From Escherichia phage vB-Eco-KMB23, in the sequence record OR525702.1: a stretch of 64,000 nt of DNA. One strand, given 5' to 3'. Position numbers and translations under genes: made by a program. Position 1 is the first letter of the stretch. Each line of letters opens with the position of its first letter. Below, piece after piece: positions 39,429 to 41,971 of this stretch. Below the pieces are notes generated by a model. The model made no database searches. It worked only from the letters and a program-made list of their open reading frames with translations, and had not been told where the DNA came from.

Positions 39429-40013
39429 TCATTTATATACTGATTCCGTAAGGGTTGTTACTTCATCTATTTTATACCAATGGGTTTCAACCATTTCACG
39501 CTTGCTTATATCATCAAGAAAACTTGCATCTAATTGAACTGTTGAATTAACACGATGCTTTTTAACGATGCGAGAAACAACTACTTCATCTGCATAAGGT
39601 AATGCAGCATATAACAGAGCAGGACCGCCAATTACACTGATGCGATTTTCGTTGTCATCGATAAACGTTTTAAAATTTGTGTTAGGACTGGATAATTGAA
39701 TGCGTCCACCGGCTAATAAGGTAACATATTCATCCCAGGTAATATAAAAATGAGCCAAATCGCCATCTTTAGTTTCAGGATAGCCGCGTTTAATATCACA
39801 TACCACCACATGACTACGACCAGGAAGTAATGTAGGCAATGACTGGAACGTTTTAGCACCCATAATCATAATCGTGCCTTCAGTACGAGCTTTAAAATTC
39901 TGGAGGTCCTTTTTAACTCGTCCCCATGGAAGTCCATCATCTAAACCGAATGCTAATTCATCAAAGCCTTCGACTGTTTTAGTTGGAGAATAAGCGAATA
40001 CCAATTCAATCAT
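39429..40013 (-). CDS. frd: dihydrofolate reductase (194 aa from ATG 40013)
   Basis: DHFR sequence matches T4 Frd (YSPTKTV...[34 protein letters not shown]); the ORF-track start at 40040 is a longer upstream ATG. Confidence 0.93.
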
Positions 40014-40258
40014 TACACAAATCCTCTTTCGATAAACCATTCAGTGGCTTTATTAGCATCAAAGAATAATTCTTCATATGTCTTTTCTTTGTTTTCAAAG
40101 ACTGTCACGCAAACACGTTGACAGTCTCCGCAGTATTCTTCTGACATACTCAAAGCGTCAGAAAACATTTCATTAAATTCACTTAAATCAGGATTATGCA
40201 ATGCGTTAAAAATTGCATAATCGAATTCATCATTCATAAATTCAAATACAAAAATCAT
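40013..40258 (-). CDS. hypothetical acidic protein (81 aa)
   Basis: ATG with AGGAGA RBS; stop overlaps the frd start. Confidence 0.5.
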
Positions 40259-40269
40259 ATTATCTCCTA

Positions 40270-40602
40270 TTAAAAAGGATCAGGAACATATCCGCTAGCT
40301 TTAATCATTTTAATTAACGTTAACATTCCTTTGTTAACTGCTCGTGAGATTTCATCAAAAACTTCATCACTAAAAAGTTCTAACACACCCTTCTGAACTT
40401 TTAATTTACAGCCAACAATTTCGTCATCGCCTATAGTAAATTCATTACCACCAATTCCTCCGAAAAACTTAATTACACCAGTTAACTGTCTTCCACGAGA
40501 ATATGGGTCGTGTGATAAAGTAATATGAGTCACCCCGGGTACAGTTTTAAATTGGCAGCGAATATTTACTTGGGAAATTCCAGTTACATGAATATCAGAC
40601 AT
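40270..40602 (-). CDS. hypothetical protein (110 aa)
   Basis: ATG with GAGGAAAA RBS. Confidence 0.5.
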   Translation of the reverse strand: MSDIHVTGISQVNIRCQFKTVPGVTHITLSHDPYSRGRQLTGVIKFFGGIGGNEFTIGDDEIVGCKLKVQKGVLELFSDEVFDEISRAVNKGMLTLIKMIKASGYVPDPF

Positions 40603-40612
40603 AATATTTTCC

Positions 40613-40855
40613 TCAAACAGACTTTTTCACAATTTTCCAATCAGCTTTAAACTGTTCAACGTCAGAATGGTAAATCCAGAATCCTGCGCTTTCTCCATCC
40701 TCATAAAGAGGGCATCCATCACATTCATCTTCCCATCCCATATCACGCAAAAGACGTTCAGCTTTTTCAACAAGTTCAGAATCTTTACCAATAATATTAA
40801 AATACCATTTACCTCTAACTTCTGAATCTTTGATACTCTGACGTTGTAATCTCAT
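40613..40855 (-). CDS. hypothetical protein (80 aa from ATG)
   Basis: ORF track begins at TTG 40912; ATG at 40855 is preceded by AAGGAGA and an early promoter. Confidence 0.45.
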   Translation of the reverse strand: MRLQRQSIKDSEVRGKWYFNIIGKDSELVEKAERLLRDMGWEDECDGCPLYEDGESAGFWIYHSDVEQFKADWKIVKKSV

Positions 40856-40912
40856 TTTATTCTCCTTAGTTGATAAGGCTATAGTATCACTACCATAGCC
40901 TGTTGTAAACAA

Positions 40913-41173
40913 TTATTTTTGAATTTTATCGAGCCACTTACCAAGCTTAATCATTTCTTTAGTAGCCTTTTCCATACTTCTGAACTTAACCAATAGAGGA
41001 TAGGTATCGACACCCATAACTAAACTGGTTACAAGACTGTGTTCACCCACAAGCCATAACGAATACGTTTGAATATCGAGCCCGTAATTTCTGTCTTTGT
41101 GGACCCGTACACCCATCACTTCAAATTTCTCACTAGCTTTTTCTACCGCATTCAGGAAATCATCTTTAGTCAT
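40913..41173 (-). CDS. hypothetical protein (86 aa from ATG)
   Basis: ORF track begins at TTG 41206; first ATG at 41173 lies 1 nt from the upstream ORF stop. Confidence 0.4.
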   Translation of the reverse strand: MTKDDFLNAVEKASEKFEVMGVRVHKDRNYGLDIQTYSLWLVGEHSLVTSLVMGVDTYPLLVKFRSMEKATKEMIKLGKWLDKIQK

Positions 41174-41174
41174 A

Positions 41175-41555
41175 TTAGGCCTTAAAAGTTTTTCGCAAAA
41201 GTTCAATGATTTCGTCTACATTGTTTTCATCTACAATGCAGTGAATTTTTGTTACGCCAGAAACCTTGTCTTTGACTTCATCTTCTTCAGAAGTCGGTTC
41301 TTTATACTCACGAAAACAATGAAATTCGTCTTCGCAAATTTCTAAAAGTCTATCTTTGAGGTAAAAATGCTTTCCATTTGCGCATTCAATGTGTTTTACT
41401 GCTTTATATCCGTTAGCGACGGAAACTTCTTTAACTTCAAACCATCCGCCATTATCTCGAATGGCTTTAACTATTGATGAATTAGAACGTGGGCTATAAT
41501 TAATAAATGTATCAATAAGTCTTGGAACAAGTTCATACTTTTTACCGATATACAT
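41175..41555 (-). CDS. hypothetical protein (126 aa)
   Basis: ATG with GAGGAAAA RBS; several Cys/His residues. Confidence 0.5.
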   Translation of the reverse strand: MYIGKKYELVPRLIDTFINYSPRSNSSIVKAIRDNGGWFEVKEVSVANGYKAVKHIECANGKHFYLKDRLLEICEDEFHCFREYKEPTSEEDEVKDKVSGVTKIHCIVDENNVDEIIELLRKTFKA

Positions 41556-41599
41556 TATGTTTTCCTCATTTTAACGGGGCTGTAATAGCCCCTTGATAA

Positions 41600-41827
41600 T
41601 TATTGTTCAATCAATCCCATGTAAAATTCTGCGTCTTCAGAATCCATACCATCACAATATTCATTAGCCATAAAGCGGGTGAGGTCTTCAAGAGGACCTT
41701 CAATAACGATTTGAATACTCCAAAACTTAGAATCTTGCACGCTTGTGATACTAAGTTCAGGATAACGATTACGAATAATTTCTTCGATATATTCAAAATC
41801 AACGATGTCAATATCAACTTTAGCCAT
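41600..41827 (-). CDS. hypothetical acidic protein (75 aa from ATG)
   Basis: ATG at 41827 with AAGAGGAAAA RBS, immediately downstream of an early promoter. Confidence 0.45.
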
Positions 41828-41867
41828 ATTGTTTTCCTCTTTAATCATCAGCAGTATTGCCGATAGT

Positions 41868-41902
41868 TGTATAGTACCATGGAAGAACAAGGATGTAAAC
41901 AG
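41868..41902 (-). promoter_or_regulatory. early promoter (GTTTAC ... TGGTACTAT)
   Basis: - strand AAAAATTTTTCACAAAACTGTTTAC -35 region and TGGTACTATACAACTATC -10 region. Confidence 0.5.
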
Positions 41903-41910
41903 TTTTGTGA

Positions 41911-41949
41911 AAAATTTTTAAAATAAAAAAGGGGACCTCTAGGGTCCCC
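41911..41949 (-). terminator. intrinsic terminator after gene 32
   Basis: GGGGACC-CTCTAG-GGTCCCC hairpin followed on the - strand by TTTTTTATTTTAAAAATTTTT. Confidence 0.65.
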
Positions 41950-41971
41950 AATTAATTAGTAATATAATCTA

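Follow-up and report, generated by a model that had tools for sequence, protein, structure and literature searches.

Six small early genes between frd and gene 32 of Escherichia phage vB-Eco-KMB23: a common Tequatrovirus arrangement of which phage T4 carries a reduced form

Why one T4-like phage should carry six small open reading frames (ORFs) between frd (dihydrofolate reductase) and gene 32, where T4 has only frd.1, frd.2 and frd.3 (NC_000866, 145762-146802), is the question raised by a stretch of 64,000 nucleotides (nt) from Escherichia phage vB-Eco-KMB23 (sequence record OR525702.1; this whole stretch is called the window below). The three ORFs lacking a T4 orthologue were designated A, B and D. 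The comparison with deposited genomes identified the window as Tequatrovirus DNA and its interval as the normal frd-32 hyperplastic region of that genus: the layout with six genes is common, has been annotated before and is explained by known mechanisms, and the six genes themselves are already known, as genes of unknown function. The ORF coordinates used here (Table 1; positions of the window) refer to ATG starts with a Shine-Dalgarno (SD) sequence, which are present in all six small ORFs, all on the minus strand, while upstream TTG codons served as starts for three of the six in the mechanical ORF list. With these ATG starts, the count, the coordinates and the size range of 75-126 amino acids (aa) given in the original prediction, which was made from the sequence of the window alone, were reproduced, and its figure of three genes for T4 was borne out by the T4 comparison.

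The 3.9 kb including the interval were 95.8% identical to the Tequatrovirus phages TadeuszReichstein, teqdroes and RB18, which was the best match, and no identical copy of the window sequence was found in the collection searched. The order frd, A, B, frd.1, D, frd.2, frd.3, 32 was the same in teqsoen, teqdroes, TadeuszReichstein, RB18 and CM8, from which the window differed at 94-98.8% nt identity by point differences only, and the records of these relatives carry the same ORFs, labelled hypothetical protein or DUF protein. A contiguous run of D, frd.1, B and A was found in 77 of 604 records, a lower bound for the deposited Tequatrovirus records with this arrangement, other records being without D, without B, or without both A and B. 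Taken singly, A was present in 451 phage records (nearly all Tequatrovirus-like), B in 486 and D in 351, about 219 of the latter at 60% identity or more. The unusualness that the original prediction implied for the interval did not survive these counts. Its statement that none of the ORFs has a recognisable motif proved inaccurate: all six matched a PHROG family (E values from 1e-34 to 1e-56) and four of them also a Pfam family (DUF7247, DUF5417, FRD2 and Phage_FRD3), all of unknown function. Neither A nor D matched Pfam (phrog_3183 and phrog_4423 being their PHROG families), and no paralogues of the six proteins were found elsewhere in the window.

The T4 cluster resembles that of the window in strand, in its position between frd and gene 32, in having two early promoters and in the gene 32 terminator, but contains no intact A, B or D, and its frd.1-frd spacer is a remnant of A and B. 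This 71-nt spacer (NC_000866 145691..145761) begins with the ribosome-binding site (RBS), the ATG and approximately 50 nt of B, closes with ~22 nt from the 3' end of A, in which the TAATG overlap with frd is retained, and keeps a 16-codon frame, MYVIEIIQVSIRFQLK, behind the intact RBS. The T4 spacer is therefore a deletion scar, A and B having been lost together in one internal deletion. At the same junction of T2, only B is missing in comparison with the window, and the deletion is bounded precisely by two similar RBS (TGA|AGGAGAT..ATG). Because the T4-type junction with its A/B deletion scar was found in only 17 of the 377 matching records, it is T4 that is the outlier, with a reduced form of the interval. 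The synteny comparison across T4-likes suggested along with the original prediction came out in favor of a plastic early-gene interval in which A, B and D are without T4 orthologues, although with T4 on the reduced side.

In the distant T4-like genera A and B were syntenic with the window, namely in Kanagawavirus, Gelderlandvirus and the Klebsiella T4-likes. B stood directly after the frd.1 homologue in Kanagawavirus PEi20, Gelderlandvirus STP4-a and Klebsiella phage Roth01, the start and stop of the two genes overlapping in PEi20 and STP4-a, and its protein was kept at 36-50% identity in the same position in at least four genera. It belongs to DUF7247 (PF23905; 148.9 bits vs a cut-off of 27, residues 1-109), as do all 48 of its 48 aligned homologues, and a BFVD search with B returned only other DUF7247 proteins, one of them in a podovirus. 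For A, only 4 cluster representatives were present among 1.84 billion proteins, while its hidden Markov model matched an ORF just upstream of, or overlapping, the frd start in PEi20 (E 1e-9). On the strength of this conserved placement, A and B are long-standing members of the interval. For the CxxC motif of A, a function in redox chemistry or zinc binding was considered and dropped, only the first Cys being kept in a 40%-identical relative. Within Tequatrovirus, DUF7247 occurs as two allele classes, either at least 90% or 65-70% identical to B of the window, the latter carrying 6 extra residues internally and extended at the C-terminus; records with B at 60-80% identity include those of Sf21, SHBML-50-1 and PE37.

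The junction between frd.2 and frd.1 was found in three states: in T2 it contains a promoter and stem-loop only, in T4 a 22-codon hydrophobic micro-ORF downstream of the promoter (a type present in 197 records), and in the window D upstream of the promoter, designated P2. In Dhakavirus JS98, D (95% aa identity) and the same promoter/stem-loop are located directly after frd.2b, which is only 55% identical, and the gene following this cassette is frd.3, not frd.1. The nt identity of D plus promoter to JS98 was estimated at ~90% or more, from a by-eye reading of the alignment together with the count of 27 differences in the 258 nt of the D coding region. D is an accessory gene that moves together with the P2 promoter/stem-loop as a cassette. 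The substitutions in D numbered 20 synonymous and 4 non-synonymous against JS98, those in frd.1 12 and 1 against T4, and those in A 11 and 7 with two comparisons pooled; this dominance of synonymous and third-position changes indicates that D, frd.1 and A are probably all under purifying selection. The T4 micro-ORF (MFAPYIMAAVMLVCLYLLIKAC, NC_000866 146015..146083) has a GGAG SD and a stop overlapping the frd.1 SD, and lacks annotation in the T4 RefSeq region; its product may be a small membrane peptide.

The regulatory signals of the interval were largely as originally predicted. Early promoters were recovered near both sites named, and both, P1 and P2, are exact matches to TTTACW-N17-TAYWAT, the published early-promoter (PeSL, promoter-early stem-loop) consensus of T4/PST (PMC4122927). 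This motif had 9 matches in the window vs 0.22 expected, all on the minus, i.e., the coding, strand, while a generic sigma-70 scan of the region gave 27 vs 23.9 expected, which is not above chance. The other seven matches are located at 29185, 45171, 45699, 55815, 58280, 61418 and 61934 (minus strand). According to the alignments, both P1 hexamers are kept in T4, and a P2 homologue is present in T4, T2 and JS98. No middle (TGCTT Mot box) or late (TATAAATA) promoter motifs were found on the coding strand of the interval, and an Rfam search of positions 38000-44000 yielded no credible RNA-element match. Of the flanking terminator hairpins that had been proposed, the gene 32 terminator stood, with its T-run, as the sole canonical one in the interval and is identical in T4. 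The frd.3/frd.2 intergenic hairpin, whose stem is kept in T4 and whose loop is changed, and the P2 stem-loop both lack a T-run; the former is therefore not a canonical terminator. The fold of the P2 stem-loop (-15.6 kcal/mol, z -3.1) was equaled in stability by 1 of 200 shuffles, and in a by-eye reading of the alignment its arms differ in sequence in the window, JS98 and T4/T2 yet stay complementary. Only transcripts reading through from P1 would form this stem-loop; an attenuator, a processing site or a recombination site are candidates for its role.

The predicted coupling between the genes was confirmed as well: the frd.2 stop and the D start read TAAtATG, with D starting 1 nt after the stop, the frd.1 stop codon is located within the SD of B (TGAGGAAA), and the A stop overlaps the frd start (TAATG), while B and A are separated by 11 nt. 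According to the proposed scheme, the host RNA polymerase would start at P1 and P2 as two strong T4-type early promoters, producing a frd.3-frd.2-D message from P1 (predicted start near 41864) and a frd.1-B-A-frd message running on downstream from P2 (predicted start near 40874), and the genes in each unit would be translated from their own SD sequences, with the stop/start overlaps linking frd.2 to D, frd.1 to B and A to frd. In T4, frd.1, frd.2 and frd.3 have early RNA and their proteins were detected (PMC9697503 supplement), and the frd.3 mRNA ranks with the abundant phage RNAs that carry an NAD cap (bioRxiv 10.1101/2024.04.04.588121). From the position of A, B and D inside the two units, we infer that they are expressed likewise. 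Expression signals were thus present for ORFs that have no counterpart in T4.

The literature describes hyperplastic regions of T4-like phages and their PeSL cassettes, with PeSL mini-circles among them (Arbiol et al., 2010, PMC2839356; Comeau et al., 2014, PMC4122927), and the interval fits this published shuffling picture. P1 has the terminator of gene 32 upstream, which doubles as the stem-loop half of a PeSL-type cassette and is followed by the A/T-rich TTTTTTATTTTAAAAATTTTT; both P1 and P2 fit the consensus with an SD and ATG downstream; and gene gain, loss and replacement map to the promoter/stem-loop elements. P2 itself is an indel boundary, with D in the window, the micro-ORF in T4, neither in T2, and a different downstream gene in JS98; the D stop abuts the -35 of P2. 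The A/B deletions of T4 and T2 differ from the PeSL pattern in using RBS or internal microhomology. Genes would accordingly be gained and lost in this interval by recombination both at conserved promoter/stem-loop (PeSL-type) sequences and at RBS sequences.

The remaining three ORFs are orthologues of known T4 genes. Frd.1 is 98.8% identical to its T4 counterpart at the aa level, with the same flanks (PF17438, 115.1 bits vs a cut-off of 23.9), and Frd.3, which adjoins gene 32, is 100% identical (PF05798, 135.6 bits vs 28.1). In a tblastn search frd.3 was found in 733 phage records, and all 733 matches essentially span the 75-aa query, which disposed of the possibility, raised by a 391-position PHROG profile, that Frd.3 is fused to a larger protein. 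A few records place a DNA-binding-protein feature at the frd.3 position, and the long profile is most likely due to gene 32-frd.3 annotation fusions. Frd.2 is syntenic with T4 and a clear family member (PF03197, 113.9 bits vs 29), but with an identity of 66% (BLASTP) distributed unevenly: about half of residues 1-80 are identical to T4, while residues 81-125 (45 aligned) are identical throughout. Such a mosaic allele suggests a recombination breakpoint within the gene and allelic variation of a putative binding domain. Frd.2 has been predicted to form an LSm-like/SH3 beta-barrel family together with GoF and MotB.1, with five N-terminal strands, and T4 frd.2 amber mutants plate normally (Kim et al., 2025, PMC12152347). 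The Frd.2 protein of the window is a member of this family by sequence, and its divergent part is precisely the N-terminal half with the predicted LSm-like fold. Frd.2 is most likely an RNA-binding LSm-like protein.

As to what the six products do, the database searches were uniformly negative. For none of the six products did sequence and profile searches of the PDB give a match below E 0.1, Pfam and PHROGs returned only DUF or other families of unknown function, and NCBIfam had no match. No sequence or fold similarity was detected to characterised inhibitors (Ocr, Arn, Acb, Tad, Gad and others), the models compared being those of B and D, and no plasmid homologues of B and D were found. DUF7247 and DUF5417 were mentioned in no paper found by the literature search, and the six sequences were absent from the supplement of a phage accessory-gene screen (PMC12373910). 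A link to gp94, gp208, gp214 and gp263, growth inhibitors from a Mosigvirus toxicity screen of early genes, was considered and set aside, since they apparently lie outside the frd-32 interval, a placement for which the gene numbering was inferred.

B and D were also present in Phapecoctavirus, Webervirus, a podovirus and other unrelated enterobacterial phages, among small early ORFs with no frd nearby, and this spread outside the T4-likes favors a host-directed over a nucleotide-metabolism role, which it weakly suggests for these two proteins. A and Frd.3 are both very acidic proteins of ~9 kDa (pI 4.05 for each, net charge -13.4 and -13.5, respectively). T7 Ocr and T4 Arn are small acidic phage inhibitors and DNA mimics; the likeness extends to size, charge and timing only, and A and Frd.3 differ in having no sequence similarity to any solved structure. 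For two proteins of such extreme acidity, the most likely role is that of competitive inhibitor or mimic, by which they would block a host protein that binds nucleic acids. More generally, the six products would be small, soluble, non-essential early proteins, each alone binding a host or phage macromolecule, and we infer, at about even odds, that they act as such independent binders, possibly including counter-defence. A role in host takeover or counter-defence, as against one in nucleotide metabolism, is likewise given about even odds.

The explanation favored here, that a Tequatrovirus interval of old and mobile early genes is expressed from P1 and P2 and reshuffled by recombination while its products act as independent early binders, has as a whole a probability of roughly 0.78, weighted towards the part visible in the genomes; for its gene-content, evolution and expression part our confidence is high. 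Several observations weigh against it. The transcription starts of both units are predictions in this phage, made from its promoter sequences. P2 departs from the published PeSL organization in lacking a canonical upstream stem-loop, its own stem-loop overlapping the spacer and the -10. In B, non-synonymous changes outnumber synonymous ones against teqdroes (5 vs 3, both small numbers). In the T4 CRISPRi-ART screen frd.2 was the sole "Fit" gene of unknown function (PMC11879866), and such a fitness effect conflicts with the normal plating of its amber mutants. Finally, a role in nucleotide metabolism could be read from the stable place of the interval beside frd and td and from the way in which A is coupled to frd. 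The last point leads to a different explanation, in which the small proteins serve dihydrofolate reductase, thymidylate synthase or ribonucleotide reductase as accessory subunits or regulators and owe their place to a need for expression together with frd and td. Three observations would suit this explanation: in all T4-like genera examined, the interval has gene 32 on one side and frd/td on the other; the A-like ORF of PEi20 overlaps frd as A does in the window; and PEi20 and STP4-a show start/stop coupling of frd.1 and B. However, T4 grows normally without A, B and D and T2 without B and D, the presence or absence of these genes varies freely among near-identical genomes, and in Phapecoctavirus and Webervirus B and D are found among unrelated small ORFs away from any frd. 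We consider it unlikely.

Still less probable is that mobile promoter/stem-loop cassettes carry A, B and D along as selfish passengers, which would persist through recombinational spread and be of no benefit to the phage. The D-plus-promoter cassette common to two genera in a different insertion context, the indel boundaries placed exactly at RBS or promoter repeats and the PeSL mini-circles already on record would all suit such passengers, while the purifying selection evident in the substitutions of D, the persistence of B in its place across at least four genera, the syntenic homologue of A in PEi20 and the intactness of the full-length ORFs across hundreds of genomes would not. That AT-rich intergenic DNA has given rise to some of the six as open frames by chance alone, as their shortness and the lack of a Pfam family for A and D might allow, is effectively refuted: each of them has a PHROG match and an SD with ATG, the proteins are conserved across genera with a third-position bias of substitutions, and the T4 orthologues of three were detected as proteins.

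On the far side of frd, a 115-aa ORF (phrog_1928, no Pfam match) is present where frd and td overlap in T4. It is always located between these two genes, and is 100% identical in T2 and teqdroes, 44% in PEi20 and 31% in Roth01; its label in one deposited genome, "putative homing endonuclease", was supported by no search. The td gene of the window is an uninterrupted 286-aa ORF without the group I intron/I-TevI, unlike those of T4, STP4-a and AV110. Beyond gene 32, the segG homing-endonuclease gene of T4 is absent at 42881..42979, gene 59 following directly after gene 32.

Table 1. Genes and expression signals in and around the frd-32 interval of the window
Feature	Position	Strand	Remarks
td	38156..39016	-	downstream of frd
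115-aa ORF	39062..39409	-	between frd and td
frd (dihydrofolate reductase)	39429..40013	-	downstream boundary gene; named from the annotation of the 95.8%-identical phage teqdroes
ORF A	40013..40258	-	81 aa, phrog_3183
ORF B	40270..40602	-	110 aa, Pfam DUF7247
frd.1 orthologue	40613..40855	-	80 aa, DUF5417
P2 stem-loop	40876..40901	-	11 bp, AGGCTATGGTA-GTGA-TACTATAGCCT, from P2 spacer and -10 region
early promoter P2	40881..40909	-	TTTACA-N17-TACTAT, extended -10 TG
ORF D	40913..41173	-	86 aa, phrog_4423, pI 8.9
frd.2 orthologue	41175..41555	-	126 aa, FRD2
frd.3/frd.2 intergenic hairpin	41576..41592	-	GGGGCT-ATTAC-AGCCCC; -11.4 kcal/mol, z -2.2
frd.3 orthologue	41600..41827	-	75 aa, Phage_FRD3
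early promoter P1	41871..41899	-	TTTACA-N17-TACTAT, extended -10 TG, A/T-rich tract ahead
gene 32 intrinsic terminator	41931..41949	-	GGGGACC-CTAGA-GGTCCCC then T-run; fold -14.6 kcal/mol
gene 32	41972..42880	-	upstream boundary of the interval
gene 59	42980..43633	-	beyond gene 32

To a T4 specialist nothing in this interval would be surprising. Its use lies elsewhere: it shows cleanly how cassettes are shuffled at early promoters, its A, DUF7247 and D proteins are compact phage-only candidates, without a fold match, for counter-defence and host-takeover screens, and it illustrates how, with T4 taken as the yardstick for its relatives, ancestral genes come to be misread as insertions.

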